Of a stretch of DNA of 44,931 nt, positions 1-44,931 are shown one piece after another. Positions within the stretch are counted from its first letter, which is position 1, and every line of letters starts with the position of its first letter. The notes under the pieces are model-generated. The model had not been told where the DNA came from, did not search any database, and was given only the letters and a program-made list of their open reading frames with translations. Origin of the DNA: Escherichia phage vB_EcoP_D; the sequence record KY295893.1; one strand, 5' to 3'. The translations under genes were made by a program, and so were the position numbers.

Positions 1-917
1 AGTCCACGAGCCATACCAGCGCGGCGGCGAGCATCCAGTCTAGCCTGATACTCAGCAGCAGCTTTCTTGTCTGTGCCGAAGCGAGAGCTAAGGGTCATCA
101 TCTCACGCAGGTACTGCTCACGCGAGAGTGGGCCGTTGTCTTCTGATGCGGCAGCAGGTGCAGATGGTTCAATCAGGCTTGGCTTGTCATCACCTTGTGC
201 AGCCTTACGGCGGCTCTCCAGTTCACGCACAGCGTATTGCTGAAGGTACTGGTTGCCAGATCCCATCACCGCATTGAATGCCATTAGTTCGTCATCAGAC
301 AGCGCTTCAAGTGCCCACGCCTCAAGACGGGACCACCCTTCTTCACCACCAATTTCCTTAGAAACATCAGAGAAGCGTTGGGTATTAGCTGCTTCCAACT
401 CTTTAGCTGCGTTGGCTTCTTTTAGGAAGAAGGCTTCATTTTGAGCCTTAAGGCCTGACAGGTAAGCATCTACCGCAAACTTGCCAAAAGCATCATACAG
501 TTTCTGCTTGGTTGCATCAGACAGCTCAAACTTGCCATCTTTGGCATAGAGTTCCTTGGCAACCTGCTTAGCATCAATACCTTTCTCTTTAAGGCTATCA
601 GTAACATCCTGTGGTATATCTACTGTTACTTCATAGTCTCCGAAGAAGTATTGCACTTCCTCAGTGTCGGTCGTGGTATCATCTGGCTTAGATTCACCAT
701 TCTCTCCGTCATTGTCTCTCGCTTCTGAAGGTTGTCCAGAAGTTTCTCCTCTGGTGTCTTCAGCAGATTGTGTACTAGCATTGTCATCTTGTACATTAGT
801 GCTAGTATCAGCATGAACATCATTAGTAGTAGCATCAGTTGATACCTCCTTGGTTTCTACCGGATTGTCTTCAGCAATAGGATGAGTGGTTGACGGTTCA
901 GTAAATGAGAAAGACAT
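1..917 (-). CDS. scaffolding protein, 3' end truncated by window start
   Basis: Open minus-strand frame from ATG 917..915 (RBS AAGGAGG, overlaps portal stop as TAATG) to the window edge; acidic ~305-aa product; sits between portal and capsid as T7 gene 9 does. Absent from the ORF track because no stop lies inside the window. Confidence 0.6.
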   Translation of the reverse strand, partial: MSFSFTEPSTTHPIAEDNPVETKEVSTDATTNDVHADTSTNVQDDNASTQSAEDTRGETSGQPSEARDNDGENGESKPDDTTTDTEEVQYFFGDYEVTVDIPQDVTDSLKEKGIDAKQVAKELYAKDGKFELSDATKQKLYDAFGKFAVDAYLSGLKAQNEAFFLKEANAAKELEAANTQRFSDVSKEIGGEEGWSRLEAWALEALSDDELMAFNAVMGSGNQYLQQYAVRELESRRKAAQGDDKPSLIEPSAPAAASEDNGPLSREQYLREMMTLSSRFGTDKKAAAEYQARLDARRRAGMARG

Positions 918-2467
918 TACGCCTCCTTAAGTTCTTGTTGAATTACACCCGGAATGGCCTTAGCCACACCCTCTTCAAGCATCTGTGCTTGCTGTGCTTG
1001 CATCTGCGCTTCCTGTTCTTGCTCCATCTCTTCAGTCGATTTAAGGAATGGCAGTTCAGCAGAGATTTGACCACGTACCCAATCCATGTAATCAGGCCAC
1101 TTCACAGCAGCTAGGACAGGCTCAGGCCATTGCAAAGGCAGTGACATGTACTGAGCGAAGTTTGCCAGCTTATCCAGTTCAGCCATGCGCCCTAATGCTT
1201 CAATGCCTGTGATAATCACAGGGTCAACTAGGTCACTAGTGAATGAATCACCTGCCTCCAGCAGACCCCACATCGCTACTGGCGATTGCATAGTAGTAGC
1301 AAAGAGGGAATATACACCGCCCATGTTCTGCTCAATCTCTAACGCATCTCGCTGGATTTCTACAGCAGTAACACGTTCGGCATCACGGCGTGTCATCGTC
1401 TCCATCATGAATACGACACCGATACGGCGAGTGTACACCTCTAGAACCGCACTAATAGGTGTGAGGTCTGCATACTTACCTAACTGTACAATATGGATGT
1501 CTTCTTCTACACCAGTAACAACCTCACCAGTGCCAGAGTTAACAAAGTGGTCAACATCAGTCTGAGCACCCGGACGAATCAAGTACTTAATATCTGCCAT
1601 CAGTGCAGCACCACGGGCAACTGCTTCAGACAGGAATTGGATAACGAATAAATCACCGGAGTAATCCTCTGCTAAAGGACGACCCCAATCCTCACCATAG
1701 CTTCGCTTCCAAGTTAGCGGGATAAATGGTAGCTTTTCTGATTTGATTTTACTTACCTTACCAACAGGGATATCATCAGCAGATTGCTTGAGTTCCCAAA
1801 AACCCTCACCAAGATACTTAGCATGTGTGTACAGCTTAATGCTGTCATCTTCCTTGCATTTCTTACCTTTCAAGCCCACCTCTACCACAGCACGGGTAGC
1901 GGGGTCAAATGTACGCAAGGACTTTTCTTGCAGTAAGATAATGTCTAACAGGTCGCCATTGGTATCACGGTTAACTACGTAGTGATGCATTGGTATTGCA
2001 CTGATTGCACCTTTGCTCGGCTTGTATAGCATACAGCTGCCAGCAACAATAAGATGCTTGAATGCTTCTACTACAGCAGGCCGGAATTGACGTTGCTCTA
2101 ACTCTTTCATTGCCCGTGTTTCCACTTGAGCAAAGATAGTAGCTAGCTCTGTCTTCTTCAGGCCACGCTGATTAAGAATCTTCTCACCTTGTGCAGTTAG
2201 GTCTACACGGAAGAAGGAGCGCTGTGCAGGGAATAGCACTTGCGCTAGCTTGTTGGCTAGGTGGTTAGTTGCCTGAGCACCTACACCTTGCCATCCGTTC
2301 TGCGAAGTCTCGTTATCACCTTTGTCATTCATCAGATAGGGCAAGGTTAATTTGGAGTAATGCTTCGCCCTATCAAGGAAAGAGCTACGTTTAGTGGAGA
2401 ACTTCTCCCATAGCTTAGGTATCTTAGACCGCTTACCTCCATACTCCAAATCTGTGCTCTGTTTCAT
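917..2467 (-). CDS. portal (head-to-tail connector) protein
   Basis: 516-aa ORF, size and position match T7 gp8-like portals; RBS AAGGTG before ATG; followed directly by the scaffold gene. Confidence 0.85.
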   Translation of the reverse strand: MKQSTDLEYGGKRSKIPKLWEKFSTKRSSFLDRAKHYSKLTLPYLMNDKGDNETSQNGWQGVGAQATNHLANKLAQVLFPAQRSFFRVDLTAQGEKILNQRGLKKTELATIFAQVETRAMKELEQRQFRPAVVEAFKHLIVAGSCMLYKPSKGAISAIPMHHYVVNRDTNGDLLDIILLQEKSLRTFDPATRAVVEVGLKGKKCKEDDSIKLYTHAKYLGEGFWELKQSADDIPVGKVSKIKSEKLPFIPLTWKRSYGEDWGRPLAEDYSGDLFVIQFLSEAVARGAALMADIKYLIRPGAQTDVDHFVNSGTGEVVTGVEEDIHIVQLGKYADLTPISAVLEVYTRRIGVVFMMETMTRRDAERVTAVEIQRDALEIEQNMGGVYSLFATTMQSPVAMWGLLEAGDSFTSDLVDPVIITGIEALGRMAELDKLANFAQYMSLPLQWPEPVLAAVKWPDYMDWVRGQISAELPFLKSTEEMEQEQEAQMQAQQAQMLEEGVAKAIPGVIQQELKEA

Positions 2468-2468
2468 A

Positions 2469-2678
2469 TTACACCTTCAAGCTAGAAGCTACCGGACGGA
2501 CAAGCCCGCGCTTACCTTTTGCAGATGCAGTCGCATCATCACCACCTGCACCAATCTGTATATCTTCAGCTTCAGTCTCAGGCTTACGCTCAAGCTGCTG
2601 AGCAGGAACCTTGGCTTCAATACGCGGTGCATCTTGAGCAAGACCGACAGCCTTAAATGCTTTCTTTACAATACCCAT
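2469..2678 (-). CDS. hypothetical small protein, possibly a virion-associated protein (position of T7 gene 6.7/7.3)
   Basis: 69-aa ORF with RBS AAGGAG; lies immediately upstream of portal. Function is a guess from position only. Confidence 0.35.
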   Translation of the reverse strand: MGIVKKAFKAVGLAQDAPRIEAKVPAQQLERKPETEAEDIQIGAGGDDATASAKGKRGLVRPVASSLKV

Positions 2679-2687
2679 GTGATCTCC

Positions 2688-3149
2688 TTAGAACTTCAGG
2701 TTATACACAGTGCCAAACTGTTCAAAGCCAAGTCGCTTATACATACGTCCGACACGTTCTTCATTAATACCAGAAGCGATAGACAGGCGAACCTCGGAAC
2801 ACCCACTATCGTTAGCCCATTGCTTCAAGGCTTTGATGAGGCGCATACCGAGCAGTGTCCCTCGCTTCTCTGGTACAATATAAAAGAGAATGTCAGATGC
2901 AACTCTTACAGGTGTCCAAGGGGCTAACTCGTGATAGCCAGCCCACAGAAAACCTACAATCTGCCCTTCATCTACAGCAACCCATAGGAATAAATCTTCT
3001 CTACTAAGAGATGCACAAAGGTTATGTGCGCTTTGTTCTGCATTCCATGAGGCTGAGTGGTGGGCTACAACCTTGACTTCCTCTTCCACATATTTATTCC
3101 CAAGGTTTATAATCTCAGGAATATCTAGGAATGAAGCTGGACGTATCAT
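2688..3149 (-). CDS. GNAT-family N-acetyltransferase
   Basis: 153-aa ORF containing an acetyl-CoA-binding-like segment (IVPEKRGTLLGMRLIKAL) typical of GNAT motif A. Confidence 0.6.
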   Translation of the reverse strand: MIRPASFLDIPEIINLGNKYVEEEVKVVAHHSASWNAEQSAHNLCASLSREDLFLWVAVDEGQIVGFLWAGYHELAPWTPVRVASDILFYIVPEKRGTLLGMRLIKALKQWANDSGCSEVRLSIASGINEERVGRMYKRLGFEQFGTVYNLKF

Positions 3150-3316
3150 TGGACCACCAGTTGTGCTCTAACACAATCCATAATGTAACGCTTCACTTCA
3201 TCTACGATTAATTCTTCGTGAGTCTTAGTCACCTTCGGAGAAGAAGGCTTGAGAATCATCTCAAGCATCTCCATACCCTCAAATGAAATCGTCGGTTTCT
3301 TCTTCGTCTGTACCAT
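3146..3316 (-). CDS. hypothetical small protein (start uncertain)
   Basis: Track ORF 3146..3328 begins at an apparent TTG; first ATG at 3316 lies inside the upstream gene. Weak RBS. Confidence 0.25.
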   Translation of the reverse strand: MVQTKKKPTISFEGMEMLEMILKPSSPKVTKTHEELIVDEVKRYIMDCVRAQLVVQ

Positions 3317-3494
3317 AGAGTTCTTCAACCTTCTCTTGGATAGCTTCTACAGAAAGACCAAGCTCTTCTGCATCAGCTAGTAAGGTATATGGCACTTCCA
3401 TGCCACAGGATAAAGTTTCAAAGATAGCTTCTGCTACCTCAACTGCACGAGTTGCCTTCATGCTATCAAAAGAAATCTGGTTCATCTTTGTCAT
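3279..3494 (-). CDS. hypothetical acidic protein
   Basis: 71-aa ORF with acidic C-terminus (EEETDDFI), packed between ligase and GNAT genes. Confidence 0.4.
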   Translation of the reverse strand: MTKMNQISFDSMKATRAVEVAEAIFETLSCGMEVPYTLLADAEELGLSVEAIQEKVEELYGTDEEETDDFI

Positions 3495-4413
3495 GTCTTA
3501 ATTCTCCAGCTTTGGGCAGACGAATGTTGCCCTTGCTTGAATCCTGAAGACCTTTTACTTCAAAGATTTTACCAATGACATTCAATCGTCCACCGTGTTT
3601 AATATCGTGGAACATCTGTTCTGCATCTGCATGAGTCCACCCTTTACCTAACATAGCTTTGATTGTCTTTCCTCCTTTCCATTTGAAAATGAGGTTAGCT
3701 ACCTTACCTTTGTACTTACCTTTGCCTTCTTCAAAGCCAATACAAGTAAGGTCATAAGTTACCTTACGGACTTCTTTAGTCTGACGATAACCTTTGTGGC
3801 CTGCTTCATAATCACAGTCCAGTTTAAACACAGCACCCTCTCGGCCTGCGTCTATTTGCTCTTGCGCAAACGCTTCAACTTCTCGCTCATTATGGCAAGG
3901 AGTAATAGGAAGGATAGCGTTGTACCCGCTAAGATGAGCGCCGATGCGACGATGTAAAGCATCGTAACGTTTGAGATAAGAAACATCAGTGAATCCATCA
4001 TGGAATGCCTTAATAGTTAACATATCGAAGAAGTCAATATACAGGTTGTCTTTAATCTGCTGGCCTATGAAATCAAGTGGCTCTGTGCGATTAGGGTTAA
4101 CTACTCCAGAAAGTGCTTCAAGGTAGACATCAACAGCCATAGATTGCAACTCACCGAGATAAATGCCAGTAGGGAAAGCTGAATAAGATTCTTCCAAGGT
4201 TTCCGTGTTAGCCAGTTTCTTTCCAGTGCGTCCAAAGACACCAACGACACCATCGTTGCGAACAACCACAGCACTAAATATCCCATCTCGTTTTACCTGT
4301 GCATAACATGGAAAAGTTAATTTCTTCTCAGGTACTTCACCGCGATGTTTCACCAGCATGAATGGGTGATTGCGGTGGTCTTCTGGAAGACCTAGGAATT
4401 GGAAGATATTCAT
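3466..4413 (-). CDS. ATP-dependent DNA ligase
   Basis: 315-aa ORF with the adenylation motif KxDG (KRDGIF); strong RBS GAAGGAGGTGAA before ATG 4413; size matches T7 gp1.3-class ligases. Confidence 0.8.
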   Translation of the reverse strand: MNIFQFLGLPEDHRNHPFMLVKHRGEVPEKKLTFPCYAQVKRDGIFSAVVVRNDGVVGVFGRTGKKLANTETLEESYSAFPTGIYLGELQSMAVDVYLEALSGVVNPNRTEPLDFIGQQIKDNLYIDFFDMLTIKAFHDGFTDVSYLKRYDALHRRIGAHLSGYNAILPITPCHNEREVEAFAQEQIDAGREGAVFKLDCDYEAGHKGYRQTKEVRKVTYDLTCIGFEEGKGKYKGKVANLIFKWKGGKTIKAMLGKGWTHADAEQMFHDIKHGGRLNVIGKIFEVKGLQDSSKGNIRLPKAGELRHDKDEPDFF

Positions 4414-4601
4414 TTCACCTCCTTCATCACACCTTTAACTATTGCCTCTTTAAAGTATGCTAAGTCAGAACCATAGGCACTTAGGAACCACATTGCACCT
4501 TCATCATTGGAGGTCAATACAAAACCAAGAGGGCTTACTCTATATAAGTTACCGAAGTACCCTCTATATAGTTTACCTTCCATATTAAATATCCTCATCA
4601 A
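4410..4601 (-). CDS. hypothetical protein
   Basis: 63-aa ORF; its TGA stop overlaps the ligase ATG. Confidence 0.4.
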   Translation of the reverse strand: MMRIFNMEGKLYRGYFGNLYRVSPLGFVLTSNDEGAMWFLSAYGSDLAYFKEAIVKGVMKEVK

Positions 4602-5055
4602 TACATTCGTGACGATGCTTCTGGAATAGCTCTTTGTAGTAGTCTGCTTTCTTCAGATCTTCTTCCGTGTTGAATTTCTTCCCTGCACGCAGACGATACT
4701 TCAAAGCATTACCCATGCAATATCCAGCAAATTGCTTCTCGGTCATACTACGAGCAATGATAGTGATTGCCTCTACCCCATCGAAGAACTCGTAGTGCTT
4801 AGGCTTAGTAACCATATTGTTGTCCAACGTGCTAGGATCTTCACCTTGCAATGAGTCAACAACCTTGAAGTAAGGTGCATACCATTCGCGCTTCTCAACA
4901 CCTTCTAACATGATAGAGTTATAATTAGGTTCTGCACGGGATACTTTGAATACCCCATCTGGTTTCTTGTCTAGGCTTTCACACAGTTTATTCCAGATGG
5001 CATCTCGGTAAGCTGCACGGCGTACGACGTATTCGCCAATATAAATCTTTGACAT
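4585..5055 (-). CDS. hypothetical conserved phage protein
   Basis: Track ORF 4585..5070; ATG at 5055 (MSKIYIGEY) has RBS GGAGGAA. No family recognised with confidence. Confidence 0.5.
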   Translation of the reverse strand: MSKIYIGEYVVRRAAYRDAIWNKLCESLDKKPDGVFKVSRAEPNYNSIMLEGVEKREWYAPYFKVVDSLQGEDPSTLDNNMVTKPKHYEFFDGVEAITIIARSMTEKQFAGYCMGNALKYRLRAGKKFNTEEDLKKADYYKELFQKHRHECIDEDI

Positions 5056-5106
5056 AATTAATTCCTCCATTCACTATACAATCAAGGGCAAGCTAATACC
5101 TACCCT

Positions 5107-5129
5107 TTGTTCTATAGTGTCAACTAAAT
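5107..5129 (-). promoter_or_regulatory. phage RNAP promoter, SP6-type subclass (ATTTAGTTGACACTATAGAACAA)
   Basis: Minus-strand 23-mer matching the SP6 consensus ATTTAGGTGACACTATAGAAGAG at 17 of 18 positions from -17 to +1; predicted +1 G at 5112; intergenic, upstream of 4585..5055. Confidence 0.6.
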
Positions 5130-6131
5130 CTTACCAATCCAGCGATTGTCATTATTGGTCTGCATCGGGACAATGTGCGGCACACCCTCCAGAATAACCA
5201 CACAACCTAATGCTGGCTTGTATTTGGACTCACGACCATAGGCAAATGCACGAGATGACTCATCAATCAAACAGCCTCCCTGCACAGCCCAATACTGTTC
5301 ATGGGTGTTACGTGCATACTCCACCGACATCTTCCCATGCAAGTGACCACACACTAAGTTCATGCGCTCATGTGCTGCATCTGCTAGGACAGCGCCAGCA
5401 GGTTGATGCTTGAACGCCACCTGCTCACCATTAGGTAGCTCAAGTACATGCGTATGCTGCCAGTCCCACTGGTCGCCACCTCCCTGCGGGAAGAAGACTT
5501 CACGGTATGTGCGCAGGTATTGCACAGGGATGCCATGAGCACTGGCCTTACGGAAATGTAAGGAGCCATGATTAGAGTGGCAGATGCGCATTACAGGGAA
5601 CATCTTATGTAATTTACGCATGAAGATACGAGCCTTCTCTAACTCCATACCAGCCGAATCCAGATTAGGATCTGACGTATGGAATGAAAGTGCGTGCTTG
5701 TCCGCCTCATCACCAAGATGAACTACAGTGTCTGGACGGTAACGTGCTGCCACCGCTGCCAGAAACTCTAATGTATCTGGATGCTCATAAGGTGCATGGG
5801 TGTCAGGTATTACCAGTACACTTCGATGAGGCGAGTCAGGCAATGGTACAATAGCCAAATCCTCGTAGCGGTCAGGAGTCCTGAGCTTACGTTCTTCTTT
5901 GATAGCACGGTTCGCAATAGCCAAGGTTTCATACGCCTCGCCATTCTTCTTCCGCTTTTCAAATTGTTTGGCCCAATACTTTGCAAGCTGCCTTGTAACT
6001 GTAGTCCCGTGTGTGTTATCTGAGAGAATAGACGCCATTAGGCGATAGTTGATAGTGCCATCATCCCGCTTTGCACTTTCAACTGCTTCTTCTACCTCCT
6101 TATTAGTAAACAAGTTTCTAATCTTACCCAT
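5124..6131 (-). CDS. calcineurin-like metallophosphoesterase
   Basis: Metallophosphatase signature pieces VIPDTHAPY, HLGDE and GHLH; ATG at 6131 (MGKIRNLF) overlaps the HNH stop by 1 nt; track start at 6143 is TTG. Confidence 0.7.
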   Translation of the reverse strand: MGKIRNLFTNKEVEEAVESAKRDDGTINYRLMASILSDNTHGTTVTRQLAKYWAKQFEKRKKNGEAYETLAIANRAIKEERKLRTPDRYEDLAIVPLPDSPHRSVLVIPDTHAPYEHPDTLEFLAAVAARYRPDTVVHLGDEADKHALSFHTSDPNLDSAGMELEKARIFMRKLHKMFPVMRICHSNHGSLHFRKASAHGIPVQYLRTYREVFFPQGGGDQWDWQHTHVLELPNGEQVAFKHQPAGAVLADAAHERMNLVCGHLHGKMSVEYARNTHEQYWAVQGGCLIDESSRAFAYGRESKYKPALGCVVILEGVPHIVPMQTNNDNRWIGKI

Positions 6132-6562
6132 TATTCTTTCCAAACCCTCCCGCTTACAATATCACTAATGGTAGCAGGTGAGACATTATATAGCTTAGCT
6201 AGTCGTAACCTCTCACCTTTCTTATTAGCAACATATGTTGCCCTGATAGCACGTACAACATCCCAAGTTAGTTTAGCACGATTATTATTTTCTCCTGCAA
6301 AGCTAGCACGTCTGCCTCGATCTATCATATCTTGTATGTTGTCCTGCTGTGTACCAGATATTAAGTGTGCAGGGTTTATACACCTTGCATTATCACAAGT
6401 GTGTCTAATCACTACATCCTTTATATCCTCTATAGAAAGGCCGTGGTGCTCTGCATAGACCACGCGATGAAGTAATTGTAACCTCTTACTAGGTTTATGC
6501 CACGACCTGTAGTAACCTAATTGATTTAAGCATTTATAATGCCCGTGGTCTATACAGTCCAT
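6131..6562 (-). CDS. HNH homing endonuclease, free-standing
   Basis: Contains the HNH core VIRHTCDNARCINPAHLISGTQQDN; ATG at 6562 (MDCIDHGHYK) with RBS AAGGAG right after the upstream gene's stop. The track's N-terminal extension overlaps the upstream gene and is not believed. Confidence 0.8.
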   Translation of the reverse strand: MDCIDHGHYKCLNQLGYYRSWHKPSKRLQLLHRVVYAEHHGLSIEDIKDVVIRHTCDNARCINPAHLISGTQQDNIQDMIDRGRRASFAGENNNRAKLTWDVVRAIRATYVANKKGERLRLAKLYNVSPATISDIVSGRVWKE

Positions 6563-6563
6563 A

Positions 6564-6965
6564 TCATACTCCTTTCTTTCTTGCATAAGCAAGGCGTGCC
6601 TTACGGTTCTTAGCCTCGCGCTTCTCTGCCTCCGTTTGATGTTTGTGATATAACTTATCTGTCTGAGGCGTACTATGTAACTTCCAGTATTCATACAGTC
6701 GTTCTAACCATTGAAGCTGGAAGTAACGGTTATTACCTGCCTTGCCATAACCAGAGATAACACCCTTAATCTTCCCTTCCGCACCATTGCAGCCTCGGCA
6801 TACAACAGCGCGGCAGAATCCTGTCTCATGGTCATGGTCAAGTACACGGTTTACAGGTGTGACAGCTTTGAGACTGCCGCCACACAGAGGGCATTTCCAG
6901 CCTTGCTTATCCAGCAATTCCTTCTTATAAGCTGCCACCTCCGATGCTTTTAATTTGCTAACCAT
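6564..6965 (-). CDS. endonuclease VII-like Holliday-junction resolvase
   Basis: 133-aa ORF with CPLCGG...LDHDHETGFCRAVVCRGCN, resembling the T4 endonuclease VII zinc/HxH region. Confidence 0.7.
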   Translation of the reverse strand: MVSKLKASEVAAYKKELLDKQGWKCPLCGGSLKAVTPVNRVLDHDHETGFCRAVVCRGCNGAEGKIKGVISGYGKAGNNRYFQLQWLERLYEYWKLHSTPQTDKLYHKHQTEAEKREAKNRKARLAYARKKGV

Positions 6966-7978: not shown

Positions 7979-8163
7979 GTAGGCCACTCCTTCAAGAAGG
8001 AGGACACCGCATCATGGAGGTTCTGTCTTAACCAATAGTCATCCCATTGTCTCACCTCCACTAGCTTCTCACCAGTTTTGTAATCATAGGCAACCCCAAT
8101 ATACTGTCTGGTGATTGCATTGTAGCTAATGTCCAGTTCAATTCGAGATTCAATAGTCGGCAT
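7891..8163 (-). CDS. hypothetical protein
   Basis: 90-aa ORF with ATG 8163 and RBS GGAG; its last 88 nt overlap the exonuclease start in another frame. Confidence 0.4.
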   Translation of the reverse strand: MPTIESRIELDISYNAITRQYIGVAYDYKTGEKLVEVRQWDDYWLRQNLHDAVSSFLKEWPTCDQTSTSELQYRKTIISSCGRLKVIESL

Positions 8164-8280
8164 AATTCATTCTCCAATAACTATTACGCAAAAGACCCTG
8201 CCTACACTAAGGCAGACAGGGCATTAGATGAGGTGAGCGTGATAGTCAACTAGGACTAAAAGAGGCTACACCTGCTATTA

Positions 8281-8652
8281 TCAAAACTCTTCCTCTTCGC
8301 TAACCGGAGCTTCCGGTGCAGACACTTCTACTGCCGGAGCTTCAGCTTCTTCAGCAGCTTTAACTTCTTTCACTGGTTTACCAGCAGCAATCCAATCCAG
8401 ATATTCAGCTACGATGTTAGCCTTACCGATCTGGGCTTTGTCAGCCTGCTCAGGGAAGCAAGCACGAGCGAACTCCAGACCATCAGCGAAGTTACCCATG
8501 CTGTCAATCTTAGCCTGAGCTTCTTCACGGGTATCGTAAGCCTTAGTACCAGCTACCAGTTGATCAGCTTCATCAACGATAATGAAAGACTCAACGGATA
8601 CCAGAGCAGCACCTTTAACAACACGGTTTACGATAGTTTCAATCTTGAACAT
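8281..8652 (-). CDS. hypothetical protein with acidic C-terminal tail (ends SEEEEF)
   Basis: 123-aa ORF, RBS AAGGAG; Ala/Glu-rich C-terminus ending in Phe. Confidence 0.5.
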   Translation of the reverse strand: MFKIETIVNRVVKGAALVSVESFIIVDEADQLVAGTKAYDTREEAQAKIDSMGNFADGLEFARACFPEQADKAQIGKANIVAEYLDWIAAGKPVKEVKAAEEAEAPAVEVSAPEAPVSEEEEF

Positions 8653-8725: not shown

Positions 8726-8740
8726 ACCGGACACCGATTT

Positions 8741-36850: not shown

Positions 36851-36881
36851 AGTTCCTCCATAGTGCCTATCATAAAGACCT

Positions 36882-36897
36882 GTCTCACATGTGAGAC
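36882..36897. repeat. 16-bp perfect palindrome GTCTCACATGTGAGAC
   Basis: Intergenic between the two largest internal virion protein genes; flanked by CCT...AAGCC as at 14977. Confidence 0.7.
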
Positions 36898-36914
36898 AAG
36901 CCTTGAGTTAGGTA

Positions 36915-39863
36915 CTACAATTTAACTTTACCTACCTTAGAGTCTTTAGCTAACTTGGTAGGTGCAGCCTCATAAACCTGATACCAGCCATCGGCTCCAA
37001 TACGTTTATGCGTCCACGCAGAAACAGAGCCTGCTGGCATAGGTCCACCAAACTTAACCCACATAGAGCCATCTTCCCTCGTCTCCACTTCTGTGATCTT
37101 AGGTACACCACCAGCAGCTGCCATATTGTATGCCTCAGCGCGTCGCTTCAGTAGGCCCGGAATACGTTTACCTTCACTTGATGCAGTACCCAGCATTTCG
37201 ATAAAGCCTTCCGTAAGCTTACCAGCTTTGAATGCAGCAAGAGCACGCGGTGAGTTCTGGATTCCACCTTTACCTAAATTGTAGGTTAAATCCATCAAGC
37301 CACGTTGCTGTGCAGGATGCATCTGGTCAAACGGAATCTTCCAGTCACGAGTAGGAGGCACATGCTTCTTAGCATCTTGCTCCATAAGAGCGCGAGCCTT
37401 ACTCTCTGTAAGCTGAGACATAGACCCTCGATAGGGAACTAGTTCATCGCCAATCTTAATATACCCGTTTCGCTTCTCTTCTTCCGTTAAGAAATGACCG
37501 TAACCGATAGACTCACCGTGAGCGTCTTTATATGGAGTAAAGGTTCCAGTTGCCTTATTAAAGCCAACTTTATCTTTATTCTCATCCATAGCTAGCTTGT
37601 CATAGAATTGTTGCATATTACCTCGATAGTTAATCTCGAAGTTAGAAGGCAGATTCTCACCAGAAGCAAAAGCAGAAGACATGAGGAAGTTAGCTAGTCC
37701 AAATTTACCAATATCTTTGGCAGTTGGTTTAGCTGGCATAGGCTCTTGTGCACCAATATCTGTACGATACGGGTGAACATACTCGCCTTTATCTCGTTCC
37801 TCTACTTTCTTCTGATAGGCAGAATCTAGTAGTGAAGTGGTATCTAAAGAGGTTACAGGGATTACTCCAGAAAGAGGGCGACCTGCTGCACCAGCACGAA
37901 TCACAAAAGTTCCTTTCTGCTCATTGTAGTCAATGTACACATCATCCTTAGTTTCCCACTCTTGAAGCTCCTTTTTCAATTCTGGCATCTGTGTTTCTAC
38001 ATACCTACCAAGCGCCAGAGGGACATCGGTAGGGTTTACACCTTTCCCAACTGACATAAGCATATCAGATGCAGAAGTGTAATCACCTTTAATGAAATAG
38101 CCACCGGAAGTCTTTGCATCCTCTGATTGAGTGTAGCGTTTATTGCCCCAAGTAATTAAAGCCTTCTTGATAGAATCCATGTTACGCATACCGCTAGACC
38201 ACAACATATTGGCCTTAGCTCGTAACTCTTCTTCCGCAATAGCTTTACCTAAGTCTGACACTTCGGTTTTACCATCAAACCAGCCAGCACCAGATACCTC
38301 ATCCAGTGCATCTCCAATAGCTGAGTTGAACTTCTTGTTTTCCTTCTCAGTACGAGAGAATTTCTGCTGTGCTTCACGCGCAAACCTTGCAGCCTGCAAA
38401 GGTGTCTCTCCCATTTGTAGTGCAGTGTTGTAGTTATCCATGTAGCCATTCACCGTGTCACCAAAGACACCTCGGCTCTCTTCTGGCAACTGTTCCCACA
38501 ACTGACGAATAGTCATCAACTCCTGTGGTTCGCCCTTGGCAAAGTGCTCAGGCGATAGCATAGATTCCATGGCTTTGATACGAGACTCAAAGGTATCATC
38601 CACTAAGCCTTTGGAGTTCATGAATTGCAGGCGCTGCACTTCCACTGCACCACGAATAGCTTCAGCCTCTTGACTGTAAGGGTCCAAGCCACGTTGCTTG
38701 ATTTGCTGGTCTGCATAAAGTTGGCTATCCTGTTTGATAACATCAATGTAAGCCTTCTTCTCTTTATCAGTCTTACCTTGGAAGCCAGTCAGGCGGTCGG
38801 AGTAAAGCTCACGTCGCATATCCTGCATTGCACCTAGCTCTGCATTCTGCTTAGCCCGTTGGCGCATCAGTGCCTCTAGCTCTGGATTAGAGAAGACATA
38901 GTTACCTGTCAGATTATTAATGTGCTGTGCTCGTTCCAACAATTCTTCATCAGTTAAATCACCTGCAAGGTATGATTCTTTAACTTCGAAAGACATACGA
39001 GTTACATCAGCTACATTATTCCTAGCCCAAACTGCATTACCACTAGTGATGGCTGTGATAAGCTGTGGATTCTTAGCATAAACAGAAACACCCTTATCGT
39101 CCTTCACATACTTCAGGGCTTCAGCCATGCTAACATCACCGCCTTGTGCAAGTGAAATTGCTCGCTGGACTAACTTCTTGTGCATCTGTTCAGGTAGTAA
39201 TCCTTGAGTAAGACCTTCGCGGATTCGTTCCTGTAAAGCATAGCCAGAAGCTTCAGGGTCAATATTAGAATCCCAAGTAGAAGCCACTCGCCCGTCAAAG
39301 GTATCCTCACGGTCTGCTTGTTCACGGTCAAGTTTATGCTGGGTCCGTGTAGCCCAAATCTGAGGCTGCTGTTCTTGGAAGACATTAGTGACCATACGCA
39401 TAGTATCTTTGTCACCTTGCAACTCAGGGTATTGCTGGAACAGCTTATTCTGCATCTCATTACGAGAGTCAACCATAAGTTGTGTCCACTCGTCATCCGT
39501 CCCTTGGAAACGAGTAGCCATGTCTTTCATTCGTGCTGCTTCATCATTAGCTAGCAGTTGAGCTTTGACAAGCATGTTAGCACGAGCGCCACCACGAGTT
39601 GCATCCTCAGAAGGCATTAATCCGTTATATGCCCGTTCCATTTGAACAACCTTATCTTCCTCAATCTTCTGATTAAGGATACCAGTGGTAACATCAGCCA
39701 CGCTGCTTGCTGCACGAATAAGGTCTTCGATAAATCTACTACCGGAGGTAGAAGCCACGCCAGCCTCCACACCTCCCACTTGTTGAGGTGCAAAGGTCAT
39801 GACATTAGGAGAAGTGGCCTGCACTTGTGGCAGACCTTGTACTGCTTGTCGCTCAATTGCCAT
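36915..39863 (-). CDS. internal virion protein with C-terminal lysozyme-like (muramidase) domain
   Basis: 982 aa; residues near the C-terminus (YKDAHGESIGYGH...LTYNLGKGG...GLLKRRAEAYNM) resemble T4/P22-type lysozymes as I recall them; ATG overlaps upstream stop (TAATG). Confidence 0.7.
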   Translation of the reverse strand: MAIERQAVQGLPQVQATSPNVMTFAPQQVGGVEAGVASTSGSRFIEDLIRAASSVADVTTGILNQKIEEDKVVQMERAYNGLMPSEDATRGGARANMLVKAQLLANDEAARMKDMATRFQGTDDEWTQLMVDSRNEMQNKLFQQYPELQGDKDTMRMVTNVFQEQQPQIWATRTQHKLDREQADREDTFDGRVASTWDSNIDPEASGYALQERIREGLTQGLLPEQMHKKLVQRAISLAQGGDVSMAEALKYVKDDKGVSVYAKNPQLITAITSGNAVWARNNVADVTRMSFEVKESYLAGDLTDEELLERAQHINNLTGNYVFSNPELEALMRQRAKQNAELGAMQDMRRELYSDRLTGFQGKTDKEKKAYIDVIKQDSQLYADQQIKQRGLDPYSQEAEAIRGAVEVQRLQFMNSKGLVDDTFESRIKAMESMLSPEHFAKGEPQELMTIRQLWEQLPEESRGVFGDTVNGYMDNYNTALQMGETPLQAARFAREAQQKFSRTEKENKKFNSAIGDALDEVSGAGWFDGKTEVSDLGKAIAEEELRAKANMLWSSGMRNMDSIKKALITWGNKRYTQSEDAKTSGGYFIKGDYTSASDMLMSVGKGVNPTDVPLALGRYVETQMPELKKELQEWETKDDVYIDYNEQKGTFVIRAGAAGRPLSGVIPVTSLDTTSLLDSAYQKKVEERDKGEYVHPYRTDIGAQEPMPAKPTAKDIGKFGLANFLMSSAFASGENLPSNFEINYRGNMQQFYDKLAMDENKDKVGFNKATGTFTPYKDAHGESIGYGHFLTEEEKRNGYIKIGDELVPYRGSMSQLTESKARALMEQDAKKHVPPTRDWKIPFDQMHPAQQRGLMDLTYNLGKGGIQNSPRALAAFKAGKLTEGFIEMLGTASSEGKRIPGLLKRRAEAYNMAAAGGVPKITEVETREDGSMWVKFGGPMPAGSVSAWTHKRIGADGWYQVYEAAPTKLAKDSKVGKVKL

Positions 39864-40585
39864 TAAATACCTCTTGTTCCAGATGAATATGTGCGAGAAT
39901 CAGTTAAGGCTTTACCCAATGCCTTGCCAGACTTACTACCAGTTACATAGGCAGATGCCAGACTTGGAATACCTTTAACCAAGGTATTCATAGCAGAAGG
40001 CTTCTTAAACTCACGCATCTGCATCTGACCACCACGTTGGATAGACTTAAGCTGGTTGGTGAAATTAATCTTCTGATTCTCATAGTTATCAATGATAGTA
40101 CTCTGGTTTCTGCCGCCATCTGCTGCTAAGTCATTAAGCATAGAGGACACAGAATTACCACCAGTACCAGTAGCCCCAGCAAGTAATGCAACCTGTGCTC
40201 GCTGCTGTAGCAGTGAAGCCTGATTACTGATTGCATCTGCATGATATTGTTTAGCAGCAGAACGTTCTGCGTCTGCCACTGTCTTGTACGCCTCTTGTGT
40301 AGCAATAAGCTGCTGCCGCCATTGCTCTTCTTGTGCTTTCTTCATCGCCTTGGCTTCATCACTTCCACCAAAGAGATCACCAATCAAGCCTAACCCTTGA
40401 AGGCCAGCACCAAGAAGGCCAGCATTAGAGAAACCAGCAGTGGAGCCACTTAGGAATCCACCTAGTGAACCTAGCAAACCTCCGCCACCTGCGGCAGCAC
40501 CTCCAGCAGCGGCTGCTGCACCGCTGCCTGCAAACATACTACCAATAGAAGACATACCAGACATAACGGCTGAACCTATAGCCAT
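39863..40585 (-). CDS. internal virion protein, Gly/Ala-rich
   Basis: 240 aa from ATG 40585 (MAIGSAV, RBS AGGAGGG); long Gly/Ala-rich N-terminal region then coiled coil; overlaps tail tube B stop. Confidence 0.6.
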   Translation of the reverse strand: MAIGSAVMSGMSSIGSMFAGSGAAAAAGGAAAGGGGLLGSLGGFLSGSTAGFSNAGLLGAGLQGLGLIGDLFGGSDEAKAMKKAQEEQWRQQLIATQEAYKTVADAERSAAKQYHADAISNQASLLQQRAQVALLAGATGTGGNSVSSMLNDLAADGGRNQSTIIDNYENQKINFTNQLKSIQRGGQMQMREFKKPSAMNTLVKGIPSLASAYVTGSKSGKALGKALTDSRTYSSGTRGI

Positions 40586-42987
40586 TAGACCCTCCTTTTG
40601 GTTGGATTGTAGCTCCCTTCCCACTCAATATCGCGGAGCTGGAATGTGTGAGGTGATTCTACAATAATACGATAAACAGCATCCGTACTCTTAGCTCTCA
40701 GTGGGAATCTGAAGACACCTTCTCTTGGTTCAACATAACCTACTGTATTGTTGAGAGCACCACCTATACGGTTTGACGCTAGCACCCTGCGTACTTTACC
40801 ACTCTTCACATTCTTAACCTCCACGGAGAAATCAGGATACATATCAAGATTAAGGTGAACCAACCCCACAACAGGTACATCAATATAGGATACACGGTCT
40901 TGCCTATCTCTGATAACTACAGGTGTTGGTTCAAACTCTTGAGGGTAAATCTGACCAACAATAACCTTCGCTTTTACGTGGCTATCATCATGCATATCAA
41001 AGGTTGTAGACAAGGTGTTATCACCGGGATTATATTTGAATAGGAAAGAACCACCAATATATGAATCCCACCCGTCTATTAAGATGCAATCCAAAAGCTC
41101 TGGGTTAGTAGGAGTCCAAGGAAGCGGTTCAGACACCCATTCATCTTCTGCTTTAAAATGCTTGAAGACTAACTCTGCTTGCCTATCCATCCTAATGCGG
41201 TCATTCAAACCATAGGTTAATGCATCACCCATGTCCATCTTCTCCAGATATACGCCATCCCCTCGCTCAAGGAGTAGGTAAAGTAATTCACCAGAATAAA
41301 ATAGACCTCGCACCTTTGTACCTACAGGCCACTTCCATACATGCCATGCTGATTGTACACGGTCTGTTCCTTGCCATAACCAATCATAGCAGTAGATTAT
41401 GTTACGGTACTTATCGGTAGTGACAAGTAACCTGTTGACATTGGTGCTTGCTGCCATGTTGGTAATGTTACCTTCGATGAGTTTATTCACATGACTTGTG
41501 ATTGCTTGTGCCTTCTTAGTGTCACTATAAGAGTCTGTATAGAACTCTCGTACACCAGAGTAATAACCATCATTAGTGGCAAACATTACCGATTCACCAG
41601 TTACTACTGGCTTCACTTTATTGTTCACTTCAAATGTTGTAACAGGCTTAAGCAATGCATTTGACTTCTCTAAAGGCTTATCGCCTGGCAGTATGAATTG
41701 TGACTTATCAGAGAACAATACGGTAGCTCCATCTAAGGTCACTGCATGTTTTAGCTGGTAAACTTCACTCGCATCTGAGAAAATATCAAATGGGTCAGTT
41801 GCCAATGCAGAGATAACCGTATAACGAAAGAAATCGAAGAAATATGATGTACGAGAAGCAATAACCGCTTCACCTGCTGTAAAGCATAGGCGGTTCTGCA
41901 CCATGAACATTCCACCTATTGTCTGGGGTACTTCCTCATCAATAAAAGAGGGCATAGGGTTAGTCAAGTCATCCCCTACTTTACGGTCTTCCCAATCACC
42001 TTGTCTTATCTTGAATTGAGCTATGCCGTCAATGATACCTGTACGTTCAATAATGTAAGGCATTGTGCCTTTATCAAACCCAAGTAATACATCAGCAGCT
42101 ATTGTTTCTTTCCAAGACACAAGGTTTCCCTCTTTAGGCTCAGCTTGCAGCCAGTAACGAGACTCAGGTTTGCTGCCAGTAGGCCACACTTGTACTTTAT
42201 AACCAGCAGGCGCACGAGAAGGGAGTAGGTCAGTAGAGCTAACTTTATTCTTGATAGCCACTAAGTCCTTACCTTTTGCACCATCGGTAGTTGTTACTGT
42301 GAAACTTTTACCATCGCGTCTCTCTATAAATATGCTCGTACCATCTCTTTGTATTTCATAGTCATTCACACCACTCCATTGCTGCAACTTGGAGTACAAT
42401 TCAGAAGTGATACGTTCCGTTCGTATTTGTTCAACATGTTCTGCACTTCCCCCATCTGGTGTTTTAAAACTAGCAGCTGTAGTTCCATTAATTATGATAG
42501 AATAAGATGTACCGTATTGACCATATGCACAAAACACAATGGCTTTATCTCCAACTTTAGGTGACTTCCTATTACTAACTTTAACCACTTTCCTACGGTT
42601 AAGCATAAAAGTAACATCAGCTATAGTCATGAATTGCACATCTTCCCTAGGGTTAACAACTTCAGAAAGGTAGGTCATAGGTGCATCTTGAGAGGTGACA
42701 TTGCACTTGCGTCCATGCTTATCAAATATCTCTGGCACTTGCCCCTTCTTTAAGGTGAAGAAATACTCTTCATCCCCCTCACCCCTGCGATAATGGTGCG
42801 TTGCCATATTATCTGTACCTTCATCCAAGAGCTTAGCAATGTGAGTTGTACCCATGCGGGATTGAGTCCCATTCACTACATCAGGGACCATGTTCACCAT
42901 AGTCGTACATTGGCCATCAAGACGTACCGCTGGTGGTTGCTGGCTAATCCCTTGGATTTGCCTCCCTAATGAACCTTGTACTTCCAT
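40585..42987 (-). CDS. tail tubular protein B (T7 gp12-like)
   Basis: ~800 aa from ATG 42987 (MEVQGSLGRQIQGISQQP, RBS GGGAGGA); N-terminus resembles T7 gp12 (…GGISQQP…). Confidence 0.85.
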   Translation of the reverse strand: MEVQGSLGRQIQGISQQPPAVRLDGQCTTMVNMVPDVVNGTQSRMGTTHIAKLLDEGTDNMATHHYRRGEGDEEYFFTLKKGQVPEIFDKHGRKCNVTSQDAPMTYLSEVVNPREDVQFMTIADVTFMLNRRKVVKVSNRKSPKVGDKAIVFCAYGQYGTSYSIIINGTTAASFKTPDGGSAEHVEQIRTERITSELYSKLQQWSGVNDYEIQRDGTSIFIERRDGKSFTVTTTDGAKGKDLVAIKNKVSSTDLLPSRAPAGYKVQVWPTGSKPESRYWLQAEPKEGNLVSWKETIAADVLLGFDKGTMPYIIERTGIIDGIAQFKIRQGDWEDRKVGDDLTNPMPSFIDEEVPQTIGGMFMVQNRLCFTAGEAVIASRTSYFFDFFRYTVISALATDPFDIFSDASEVYQLKHAVTLDGATVLFSDKSQFILPGDKPLEKSNALLKPVTTFEVNNKVKPVVTGESVMFATNDGYYSGVREFYTDSYSDTKKAQAITSHVNKLIEGNITNMAASTNVNRLLVTTDKYRNIIYCYDWLWQGTDRVQSAWHVWKWPVGTKVRGLFYSGELLYLLLERGDGVYLEKMDMGDALTYGLNDRIRMDRQAELVFKHFKAEDEWVSEPLPWTPTNPELLDCILIDGWDSYIGGSFLFKYNPGDNTLSTTFDMHDDSHVKAKVIVGQIYPQEFEPTPVVIRDRQDRVSYIDVPVVGLVHLNLDMYPDFSVEVKNVKSGKVRRVLASNRIGGALNNTVGYVEPREGVFRFPLRAKSTDAVYRIIVESPHTFQLRDIEWEGSYNPTKRRV

Positions 42988-43724
42988 TAACGATCCTCCC
43001 ACGGACGAAGTGCCCAACTGTCATATGGTGAATGAGAGTAAGCAGGTACATTCTGAGAACCACCTGCCATAATACCGAACTGACGCTGCGTAGGATTATG
43101 CACAAGCATATTCAATCGCTTTTGTGACATTTGTTCTGATTGCACATCCATTAGAAGCTGAGTGGCAATCTGCTGTGCAGTGGCTAGCTTAGTCTGATCT
43201 GCATCCTTAGACACAATAAACTCTACAGCAGCTTGATAGGCAATAGCCTGCATTACACTAGTAGGTAGATGCTCATATGGAAGTAAGGTAAGTAAGGTAA
43301 GACGAATCATACCATTAGCATTCACATGCTTACGCATATCAAAGGTATGACTCCATGTAGAGTAGAGCTTACCTGCTCGCATAGTCATGGGTACTTTCTT
43401 CTCACCCAAAGCATAACACTGCAATACTGCTAGGCAGTTGTTAGGTAGATTGACTTCACCATTGGTATCAGGTGCAATCTGCCAGTTTGGTTCACGATTG
43501 AACCACCAGCCACCTCCTTTGTTGTACTGGAATCGCTGGGATACGATGTCGATCATCTTGCTTGCATCTTCTGCGTCCAAGTCACCTGAGTCGAGAGAAT
43601 CCACACCCTCACGACCAATAGCTCGCATACACAAGTTTACCGCTTCCAGCTTACTATCAATAATCTGGAAGGCCACATCTTCCATCATATGACCTACTTT
43701 ACTGGTTTGTCTAATTACAGGCAT
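42987..43724 (-). CDS. tail tubular protein A (T7 gp11-like)
   Basis: 245 aa from ATG 43724 (MPVIRQ, RBS AGGAGGG). The track's N-terminal extension (to 43781) is a translation of the terminator hairpin and U-tract and is not believed. Confidence 0.8.
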   Translation of the reverse strand: MPVIRQTSKVGHMMEDVAFQIIDSKLEAVNLCMRAIGREGVDSLDSGDLDAEDASKMIDIVSQRFQYNKGGGWWFNREPNWQIAPDTNGEVNLPNNCLAVLQCYALGEKKVPMTMRAGKLYSTWSHTFDMRKHVNANGMIRLTLLTLLPYEHLPTSVMQAIAYQAAVEFIVSKDADQTKLATAQQIATQLLMDVQSEQMSQKRLNMLVHNPTQRQFGIMAGGSQNVPAYSHSPYDSWALRPWEDR

Positions 43725-43737
43725 GAACCCTCCTAAC

Positions 43738-43778
43738 AAAAAAAAAAAAAGAACCCTACCTACGCAAGGTAGATAGGG
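43738..43778 (-). terminator. transcription terminator after the capsid gene (T7 T-phi position)
   Basis: On the transcript: 10-bp stem CCCUAUCUAC/GUAGGUAGGG (one G.U), 5-nt loop CUUGC, then UUC plus 13 U; located 9 nt after the capsid stop. Confidence 0.7.
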
Positions 43779-43786
43779 CATAGGTA

Positions 43787-44872
43787 TTACTCAGTAGGTT
43801 TCATTGCAGTCGGCTTAATGTCATTAGCCATCACTGCACGAACAGCAGCAACCAAATCTTCAGCAGACAAGCTAGCAGCGGCAGCAGCACCTGCCGGGGC
43901 AGCATTCTTGACGTATACAGCTTTACGCTGTGCACGGTTCAGAACCTGAGTGTGCTGTGCTCCACCAGTACCCTCAGCCTCCCCAGTAGATGTGCTACGC
44001 TTAGTTGTCACAACAGACACTGCTTCCCATCGATCAGGGATTGCACCTTCAGACATGAAAGTATCAATGTAGTAGGTCTTCTCTTTCTTCTCATAGAAGA
44101 TATCACCGGTTACATCAATAGAACGACCCACAAGCAGAGCGTCAGATGTGAACAGTACAGCGATAGCACCATTCATCTCTGCGGTCGGGTCATAACGATA
44201 ACCGTTGTCTTCATTGGACAGCAGGTGATGTTTCTGACCCTGAGAGAATTTAGGGAAGCGGTTAGACGGGATAACAGGACAGTTGTAAGAAGACAGAACA
44301 AAACCATGAATGGTTGCACCGGACTGGCTGATGGTGTAGCTCTTGTCAACGATACGGTCTGCATCACGCAGTACGTTGAAGTAGCGCCACGGCATCAGGA
44401 TAGCTACATCAGAGATGTCTACTTCCTGCTCAAGCTGCTGCTCCAGAGCAAACTCTACAGCCGCCATTACATACTGCGGGTTAACCAGTGCTTCGCTTTC
44501 ATTGACCTCCACGTTGACAGAGAAGCCATGACCTTTCACACGAGGGTTAGTACGCTTAGCCTGAGTGTTAGCAATACCACCCAGCAGCATCTGCTGAATC
44601 AGCATTTCATCTTCCATCTTCTTAAGCTGCTTAGCTTGGTTGGTAGCCAGCTTAGGTTTCAGGCTGTCAATATCACCCTGTACATCATGCAGGTGTGCAA
44701 CGGTGTTACGAGCAATAACAGTGGCATCAATTACCAGCTGGTTTTTATCGGCCTGAGTAGAGGTTGCAGCCGGAGACTGACCCGGTGCCAGAACCTGCAA
44801 CTCTGTTTCACCCAAGTATTTGTTGCTTACCGTGTTAGTACCAGTAACAGTCTGAACATCGAAGTAGGACAT
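43787..44872 (-). CDS. major capsid protein
   Basis: 361-aa ORF from ATG 44872 (MSYFDV, RBS AGGTGAG); contains a GQKH...F..N segment resembling the T7 gp10 region TTGQKHVFPAN; followed by the terminator, as T7 gene 10 is. Confidence 0.75.
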   Translation of the reverse strand: MSYFDVQTVTGTNTVSNKYLGETELQVLAPGQSPAATSTQADKNQLVIDATVIARNTVAHLHDVQGDIDSLKPKLATNQAKQLKKMEDEMLIQQMLLGGIANTQAKRTNPRVKGHGFSVNVEVNESEALVNPQYVMAAVEFALEQQLEQEVDISDVAILMPWRYFNVLRDADRIVDKSYTISQSGATIHGFVLSSYNCPVIPSNRFPKFSQGQKHHLLSNEDNGYRYDPTAEMNGAIAVLFTSDALLVGRSIDVTGDIFYEKKEKTYYIDTFMSEGAIPDRWEAVSVVTTKRSTSTGEAEGTGGAQHTQVLNRAQRKAVYVKNAAPAGAAAAASLSAEDLVAAVRAVMANDIKPTAMKPTE

Positions 44873-44931
44873 GATGTTCTCACCTTTCAGGTACTGCTCA
44901 TTTACCTTACCATTGAATTTCTCAATGAGCA

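Follow-up and report, generated by a model that had tools for sequence, protein, structure and literature searches.

The window analysed here, 44,931 nucleotides in length, is the deposited record KY295893 of Escherichia phage vB_EcoP_D (phage D), with its sequence in the opposite orientation to the conventional map. Phage D is a K1E-like Vectrevirus of the Autographiviridae and has the marks of a K1E/SP6-like phage in its RNA polymerase, gene layout and promoters. Its head genes lie at the two extremes of the record, with the scaffolding gene running off one end and the major capsid gene off the other, and a single copy of the terminal repeat is found near the middle (Table 1).

Gene layout of the record

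Table 1. Features of the window, with coordinates on the deposited record
Feature	Position	Strand	Basis or remark
Head scaffolding gene, K1E gp30 homologue	1..917	minus	3' end truncated by window edge
Portal / head-tail connector gene	917..2467	minus	phrog_449, E 1.4e-185; immediately upstream of scaffold
SP6/K1E-type promoter matches (n=8)	5109, 8705, 9851, 10620, 15203, 17503, 29430, 32281 (last to 32298)	minus	pattern matches
Single-subunit phage RNA polymerase, 875 aa	17616..20243	minus	sequence identity
Direct terminal repeat (DTR), one collapsed copy, 289 nt	24134..24422	minus	homology to K1E/K1-5
Terminase large subunit gene	29449..32093	minus	interrupted by 746-nt group I intron
Group I intron, 746 nt	30181..30926	minus	carries HNH endonuclease ORF; RF00028 match, 61 bits
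Major capsid gene, K1E gp31 homologue	43787..44931	minus	5' end truncated by window edge
Internal Met41 codon	44870..44872	minus	C and K1E capsids read ...LIEKFNGKVNEQYLKGENIM(41)SYFDV
Spurious TGA	44922..44924	minus	out-of-frame triplet within capsid codons 23-24

A first-pass annotation of the sequence had described a whole-genome record with every gene on the minus strand, a gene order that wraps around the ends and a scaffold ORF cut at position 1, and these parts of its description stand, while the joining of the two ends and the capsid start that it deduced do not. Every CDS of K1E and of the sister phages vB_EcoP_C and vB_EcoP_R (C and R) is annotated on the strand equivalent to the minus strand of the window, and there were no PHROG matches for the seven longest plus-strand ORFs of the window, nor any Pfam matches for the five longest. 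The order does wrap in comparison to K1E: window 1..24422 corresponds to K1E 24421..1, and window 24134..44929 aligns to K1E 45251..24565. The genes are arranged on one strand and are colinear with those of K1E and K1-5, and the point at which the record starts is arbitrary with respect to the virion chromosome. GC-skew was rejected as a locator of the ends, because the one-strand gene layout makes it uninformative.

Promoters of the Vectrevirus kind are present. All eight matches to the SP6-type pattern, which ends in …GGACACTATAGAAG, fall on the minus strand, against 0.07 matches expected by chance, and a ninth promoter, containing ATTTACTGGACACTATAGAGGGAGA in the relatives, is placed upstream of the capsid gene in a segment that the record lacks. 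The early/middle region holds a single-subunit RNA polymerase, as is typical for Vectrevirus; it is identical to AQN31727.1 of phage D and AQN32030.1 of R, and aligns to K1E gp7.

The scaffold and capsid genes at the window ends

The scaffold gene maps to C_30 (C 23798..24718) and matches the head scaffolding profile phrog_1018 with an E value of 4.7e-70, the last residue in the window being profile position 279 of 280. It is without the third base of its last codon (CTT, Leu306) and without its TAA stop. The capsid frame in turn stays open as far as position 44931, where the window ends, and has lost 61 nt, i.e. the ATG, 20 codons and the first base of codon 21; the corresponding CDS in C (22517..23722) encodes 401 aa, and the match of the truncated capsid to the major head protein profile phrog_267 begins at position 42 of 410. 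Pfam gave no match for either protein, but PHROG profiles matched both.

What lies between the two ends can be read from the relatives. Position 1 of the window aligns to C 23802 and position 44931 to C 23661; in R the same two ends correspond to 1716 and 1575, and the intervening 140 nt are identical between C and R. The segment contains the last base of the final scaffold codon and the TAA, an SP6-type promoter, a hairpin, the ribosome binding site (RBS) TAAGGAGG and then the capsid ATG with 20 codons. When the two window ends were abutted, the resulting 899-nt artificial junction aligned in two pieces in all of the 60 listed relatives, each with 140-144 extra bases between the pieces. The natural junction is present in IMG/VR, and the abutted one had no match in IMG/VR, metagenome contigs or GTDB genome contigs. 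The ends of the window share no overlap of at least 8 nt, and an assembler k-mer overlap was thus not found; this is not a closed circular assembly in which the ends meet.

The first-pass annotation had nevertheless joined 44931 to 1, completing the scaffold with three codons and a TGA and starting the capsid at 44872 behind an RBS. The arithmetic is right as far as it goes, as the artificial join does read L-A-H-TGA (TGA at 44922..44924) followed by 49 nt to the ATG at 44872, with AAAGGTGAG 7 nt before that ATG. Circularity was moreover confirmed by read mapping according to Baig et al. (PMC5582158), and the GenBank annotation also has a capsid of 361 aa. If the circle had been closed correctly, with a scaffold ending in ...GLAH* and a capsid from 44872, a real 140-bp deletion must sit at the break, and we find this highly improbable. 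Such a deletion would cost an essential capsid gene its promoter, its strong RBS, its start codon and 20 conserved N-terminal codons, all of which are kept in 60 of the 60 listed relatives, and it would have to coincide exactly with an arbitrary contig break. Closure scars can be demonstrated at the breaks of the sister-phage records, which came from the same pipeline. The scaffold profile ends one residue past the window end, not three, and what the gene needs is one base and a TAA, which gives the real C-terminus ...MARGL* of a 306-aa protein instead of ...LAH*. The TGA resembles a scaffold stop only if the window ends are abutted. Stops within four codons are common, with 21% of all sense-strand positions and 32% of the off-frame positions inside the capsid gene having one, and a Shine-Dalgarno-like (SD-like) motif followed by an ATG occurs about 5.8 times per kb, so the apparent completion of the scaffold is well within chance. 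The ATG at 44872 is the internal Met41 of the 401-aa protein, and the supposed RBS before it is internal capsid coding sequence.

A related possibility is that phage D is a viable natural deletion mutant without the 140 nt, i.e. without a capsid promoter, a strong RBS or the first 40 capsid residues, in which the break coincides with the deletion by chance. Read-through transcription and a weak internal RBS would then have to suffice for a 361-aa capsid starting at Met41, and we regard this as improbable in the extreme.

Since a window may in principle cover only part of a record, the bases could also have been lost in cutting it out of a longer source, and thus not be missing in the deposit. 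This is very unlikely. GenBank AQN31757.1, the ‘capsid protein’ of vB_EcoP_D, is exactly the 361-aa product from 44872 and is recorded on a contig of 44931 nt, which is the extent of the window. The 361-aa annotation is sensible only if the deposited record itself is without the true capsid start.

That the 140 nt are present in phage D is suggested by relatives that are 99.9-100% identical in the flanks. A probe of the D-specific SNP (window position 6) together with the natural continuation had no match among metagenome contigs. With the exact portal protein as an anchor for fetching independent contigs, four were returned, namely C, K and two unrelated Logan runs. The 306-aa scaffold follows the portal in all four. 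In three of them about 75 nt then separate it from a capsid of 401-410 aa; in the remaining contig, KY295897 (vB_EcoP_K), no capsid is called after the scaffold. None of the four contigs with the exact portal protein had been assembled independently from the D reads (ERS1810215). No protein probe is unique to D, as its differences from C and R are synonymous, intergenic or in a protein common to R. The apparent gap is an ordinary assembly artefact and not biology.

Terminal repeat, terminase and virion ends

K1E has an exact DTR of 288 bp and K1-5 an exact DTR of 234 bp, and the boundary motifs TC(TC)GCCCTCGCCCTCGCCGG ... GTGGGCTA are common to both. The two ends of K1E map to one and the same segment of the window, the 289-nt repeat of Table 1, which is 95.8% identical to the K1E repeat and whose flanks match the right and left unique ends of K1E; its boundary motifs are shared with K1-5 as well. 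A second copy was not found in the window. In the records of K1E, mutPK1A2 (‘redundant repeat’), Mt1B1_P10 (‘direct terminal repeat’) and KAW1A4500 the segment is present at both ends, and in those of C, R and B it is single and internal. The published sizes (PMC5582158) fit the identification of the window as the D record, 45219 for D being 44931 + 288, and those of R, C and B being the record length + 289. For D the agreement is within 1 nt only, with 288 against the 289 nt measured in the window.

The physical ends had been presumed to lie near 24,300-24,480, and a location near 24.1-24.4 kb holds, refined by homology to 24422 and 24134. In the sense direction the left end of the virion would be 24422, or 24420 by the K1-5 boundary, and the right end probably 24134, after a second repeat copy that the record does not hold.

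The terminase is the enzyme that produces the virion ends. Residues 1-389 of K1-5 gp40 map to 32093..30927 and residues 390-632 to 30180..29452, at 99% identity, on either side of the intron, and the terminase/intron region has PHROG matches to phrog_17672, phrog_15524 and phrog_2081. ‘Circularly permuted’, as the window had been called, is a true description of the assembly but not of the virus, as virions of the K1E/K1-5/SP6 type have unique ends and short exact DTRs. A biologically permuted and terminally redundant genome, packaged by a headful, pac-type mechanism without fixed ends and with every linear start valid, could account for the circular assembly and for the many different positions at which the records of the group start. 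Such a genome is however most improbable here. The terminase is nearly that of K1-5, a phage with unique ends in its record; the exact DTR of K1E has the K1-5 boundary motifs and falls on one window segment; and several independent records begin or end exactly at that segment and annotate a terminal repeat. Fixed DTR ends have been demonstrated in the SP6-like phage UAB_Phi78 by Bal31 digestion and run-off sequencing (PMC4837284), and the terminase phylogeny of Baig et al. places the terminase of this group among the short-DTR packagers (PMC5582158). Judged from its relatives, phage D should have fixed termini and a terminase that is not of the pac type, and its virion genome would be linear and not permuted.

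Assembly of the record and comparison with related phages

The most rational explanation, to which we give a probability of roughly 0.93, is that phage D has a linear virion genome with DTRs, that the collapsed repeat turned it into a pseudo-circle which was broken at the scaffold/capsid boundary, and that record KY295893 was left without 140 nt. The terminase would cut concatemers at fixed sites into linear, non-permuted virion DNA with an exact DTR of about 289 bp, as has been established in K1-5, SP6 and their relatives and is expected for D by homology. Short-read assembly would merge the two repeat copies, so that the genome is assembled as a pseudo-circle, and SPAdes would break this at an arbitrary point, which here fell at the scaffold/capsid boundary. 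Phage-promoter repeats were considered as the cause of the break and rejected, as they are only about 20-25 nt and presumably shorter than a typical SPAdes k. Baig et al. (2017, PMC5582158) obtained single SPAdes contigs, joined the ends with Ns and filled these from remapped reads. If this manual circularisation did not recover the bases lost at the break, 140 nt would be lacking between the end and the start of the record, which would also hold a single repeat copy, as the window does. Abutting the ends would then yield a stop and an internal ATG by chance, and that ATG would have misled both the first-pass annotation and GenBank. We estimate the unique length of D to be 44931 + 140 = 45071 nt, and that of the virion genome to be about 45,360 bp including the second repeat copy.

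The biology is ordinary: a K1E-like phage with a linear, terminally repeated genome in a pseudo-circle assembly. The practical value lies in the correction of public record KY295893, which appears 140 nt short and has an N-terminally truncated, mis-annotated capsid (AQN31757.1, 361 aa instead of 401) and a scaffold gene without a stop. Coordinates are best read on the minus strand from 24422, and if the record ends were joined, the scaffold would acquire a false C-terminus (…LAH*) and the capsid promoter would be lost.

Pseudo-circular short-read assemblies of DTR phages are a general and well-known artefact, in which a collapsed repeat gives a circular graph and an arbitrary linear start. Many other Vectrevirus records show the repeat once, at internal positions, in the same way. 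A clean circular contig has ends that abut or overlap by a k-mer; the window has neither, and a 140-nt loss instead. The closest relatives are vB_EcoP_C (KY295892) and vB_EcoP_R (KY295899) of the species Vectrevirus cee, with 99.9-100% identity over the whole window (Baig et al. 2017, PMC5582158). They share its orientation, its gene set, its single internal repeat copy, its assembly pipeline and its arbitrary record start inside a gene. C is broken in gp6 and R in tail tubular protein A, and in both the 140 nt at the scaffold-capsid junction are intact. As to their closure scars, TTNNNN stands for 16 real bases at the start of the C record, and the R record is without 2 bases at its own ends. 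The window differs from C and R by an extra 100 nt at 22296..22494, and from C by a 9-nt deletion at 43751 and 3 SNPs in 1..21169.

K1E (AM084415) and K1-5 (AY370674) have SP6-type promoters and conserved DTR boundaries, as in the window, which is colinear with them through early genes, RNA polymerase, replication, portal, scaffold, capsid, tail, internal virion proteins, terminase and endosialidase. K1E has an intron-split terminase like that of the window, whereas in K1-5 the terminase gene is uninterrupted and there is a second tailspike (K5 lyase). Their records start at the left end of the virion and hold both DTR copies (288 and 234 bp), and compared to them the window is given as the reverse complement, with a rotation of about 24.4 kb, one repeat copy and 140 nt missing.

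Identity and rotated layout of the record

When its two halves were searched by megablast in the phage collection, the window proved nearly identical to the sister phages vB_EcoP_C (KY295892; C) and vB_EcoP_R (KY295899; R) and ~95-97% identical to K1E (AM084415); all three belong to the genus Vectrevirus, Autographiviridae. C and R match on the plus strand and K1E on the minus strand; relative to the K1E map as conventionally drawn, the window is thus reverse-complemented. The 361-aa product from the ATG at 44872 equals AQN31757.1 ("capsid protein", Escherichia phage vB_EcoP_D; D) at every residue, the accession listed for D is KY295893 (Baig et al. 2017, Supplementary Table S1, PMC5582158), and the published sizes (R 45230, C 45259, B 44307, D 45219; Baig et al. 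2017, Table 1, PMC5582158) equal the GenBank record length + 289 for R, C and B, and 44931 + 288 for D; the window is therefore the deposited D record. Its RNA polymerase sequence is that of D and R.

The first-pass annotation had taken the window for a rotated whole genome with a wrapping gene order and all genes on the minus strand. The alignments with C and K1E bear out the rotation and the wrapping, and all of C is present in rotated order apart from the gap, closure-scar and indel exceptions. Every CDS of K1E, C and R is annotated on the strand equivalent to window minus, where the SP6/K1E promoter core TACTGGACACTATAGAAG also has all eight of its window matches (0.07 expected by chance). 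The seven longest plus-strand ORFs gave no PHROG match and the five longest no Pfam family match; the longest of them, unannotated in all relatives, is most likely a shadow ORF. No tRNAs were found in the window. The small ORF nested in the scaffold gene, annotated as gp30.5 in K1E, is a predicted ORF only. Three palindromic elements (…CCTGTCTCAC-NN-GTGAGACAAG…), of which at least the last is intergenic (gp35/gp36), may act on the minus strand as transcription terminators or as hairpins for RNase III-type processing.

Features of the window and its alignments with related records
Feature	Window	Strand	Length, counterpart or content
C alignment (pairwise BLAST)	1..21169		C 23802..44970
C alignment (pairwise BLAST)	21186..22361		C 7..1182
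C alignment (pairwise BLAST)	22396..44931		C 1117..23661
K1E alignment (pairwise BLAST)	1..24422		K1E 24421..1
K1E alignment (pairwise BLAST)	24134..44929		K1E 45251..24565
DTR element, single copy	24134..24422	-	289 nt
Missing 140 nt, part 1			third base of scaffold final Leu codon, TAA stop
Missing 140 nt, part 2			SP6-type promoter
Missing 140 nt, part 3			GGGAGA/TCTCCC hairpin
Missing 140 nt, part 4			strong RBS
Missing 140 nt, part 5			capsid ATG, 20 codons, first base of codon 21
AQN31757.1	43787..44872	-	D capsid, 361 aa
ORF antisense to gp16 homologue	8788..9879	+	363 aa
ORF within scaffold gene, other frame	626..835	-	69 aa; K1E gp30.5
Palindromic elements	13790..13824, 14967..15001, 36872..36906		~35 nt each
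Terminase large subunit gene	29449..32093	-	
Group I intron insert	30181..30926		746 nt
Rfam RF00028 match	30751..30999		61 bits
HNH homing-endonuclease ORF	30173..30706		in intron
Extra sequence vs C, R, K1E	22296..22494 (with 22079..22140)		100 nt
Part of extra sequence	22362..22395		34 nt, with ~33-nt inverted copy of 22082..22114

The scaffold-capsid boundary

The scaffold frame (K1E gp30 homologue) is indeed cut at position 1, and abutting the two window ends does give L-A-H-TGA, 49 nt and the ATG at 44872; the sequence facts reported in the first pass are accurate. The join itself is however false, since 140 nt intervene in C and R. In sense orientation (window minus) the scaffold end of C and R reads ...GGT ATG GCT CGC GGA CTT TAA TCAGT ATTTACTGGACACTATAGAGGGAGA AATG TCTCCC TAAATTATCAATTTGATTTA TAAGGAGG TTTATTA, followed by the capsid start (K1E gp31 homologue) ATG TCT ACA CCG ... 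GAC AGC CTG CTC ATT GAG AAA TTC ..., and the window breaks off at ...CGT GGA CT and picks up again at TG CTC ATT GAG. Exactly 140 nt are missing, identical in C (23662..23801) and R (1576..1715). The real scaffold is not completed by three codons and a TGA, being 306 aa long and ending ...AGMARGL* in C and R, and the real capsid does not start at 44872: it has 401 aa and begins MSTPNTLTNVAVSASGEVDSLLIEKFNGKVNEQYLKGENIM(41)SYFDV, the window frame being open to its last base. Against PHROG profiles, the match of the scaffold fragment to phrog_1018 extends as far as position 279/280, and that of the capsid fragment to phrog_267 does not begin until position 42/410.

An 899-nt artificial junction aligned in two pieces to all 60 relatives listed, spanning 1039-1043 nt in their records (140-144 extra bases), and the joined form was found in none of them. 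All four contigs returned with an identical portal protein have an adjoining 306-aa scaffold; in three of them a 401-410-aa capsid follows beyond a ~75-nt spacer, and the fourth (vB_EcoP_K) is without a capsid call there. IMG/VR contains the natural junction but not the joined 36-mer, which was also not found in JGI metagenome contigs or GTDB genome contigs. The two ends of the window do not overlap by 8 nt or more. A stop appears within four codons for 21% of positions on the sense strand and, inside the capsid gene, for 32% of those off frame, and an SD-like motif followed by ATG turns up ~5.8 times per kb; such features are frequent by chance and the apparent completion is therefore unremarkable. 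The closure, scaffold tail and capsid start as first read are wrong. A true 140-bp deletion in D would also leave the record short of these bases, but it would have to lie exactly at the contig break, and we regard it as highly improbable.

AQN31757.1 is an N-terminally truncated annotation (full-length homologues have 401-410 aa), because the 140 nt are missing.

Physical ends and the terminal repeat

K1E and K1-5 (AY370674) carry exact direct terminal repeats (DTRs) of 288 and 234 bp, both starting TC(TC)GCCCTCGCCCTCGCCGG and ending GTGGGCTA. The window has one copy of this element and no second, flanked on one side by K1E right-end unique sequence (...GTGTGTCAGCTC) and on the other by left-end unique sequence (TCTGTTCGTTTCG...), which by homology corresponds to the concatemer-junction arrangement expected if two terminal copies had collapsed. 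The element stands at both record termini in K1E, K1-5, KAW1A4500, mutPK1A2 ("redundant repeat") and Mt1B1_P10 ("direct terminal repeat"), and as a single internal copy in C, R, B and, within the phage collection, many Vectrevirus assemblies that lack annotation. In the SP6-like phage UAB_Phi78, Bal31 digestion and run-off sequencing demonstrated fixed DTR ends, with reference to SP6 (PMC4837284), and the terminases of the phages of Baig et al. grouped with short-DTR packagers, with DTRs of 250-289 bp (PMC5582158). The window terminase large subunit is 99% identical to K1-5 gp40. Taken together, DTR homology, literature and terminase identity lead us to conclude that the virion genome is linear and not circularly permuted. 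The earlier placement of the ends near 24,300-24,480 was approximately right, but K1E/K1-5 homology moves them to the DTR element. The unique length is estimated at 45071 nt and the virion length at ~45,360 bp.

The terminase gene is split by a group I intron; aa 1-389 and aa 390-632 of the uninterrupted K1-5 gp40 map either side of it, and K1E has the same split layout (40A/40.5/40B).

Proposed origin of the closure artefact

SPAdes gave a single contig per genome, whose ends were then joined through a run of Ns, and remapped reads served to replace the Ns (Baig et al., PMC5582158). C begins TTNNNN where 16 real bases belong (GAAGGGTGTTTTCAGT, window 21170..21185; the window, R and K1E all have them), a scar that interrupts gp6. 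In R the closure falls inside the tail tubular protein A gene, and the dinucleotide CC that the window (43353..43354), C and K1E have there is missing between the last base of the record and its first. The C, R and D records thus all begin within a gene, at a contig break that is arbitrary, and their closures are imperfect. Such closures would be of the kind left by the N-join and remapping method, and in D 140 nt would have been lost; we infer this origin with the backing of the sister records. The promoter repeats were probably too short to break the SPAdes graph.

R also has one N, at 38670, and its gp6 lacks 26 nt that the window has (20756..20781); two ORFs (R_31, R_32) and not one are annotated there in R. 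Compared with C, the window has a 9-nt deletion at 43751, in the capsid/tail tubular protein A spacer. Its 100 extra nt, within a cluster of quasi-palindromic early-region repeats, include a 66-nt tandem duplication that takes in the RBS of a small early gene and the start of that gene (ATGACTAACGCACAACGT...); they may reflect either a genuine rearrangement by template switching in D or a mis-assembly.

The first-pass observation is thus partly confirmed and its interpretation partly supported. The sole non-trivial result concerns data quality: KY295893 appears to lack 140 nt, and the capsid CDS in it is N-terminally truncated. The window is otherwise of a known kind throughout, being the genome of a Vectrevirus, and pseudo-circles are a familiar assembly artefact for DTR phages.
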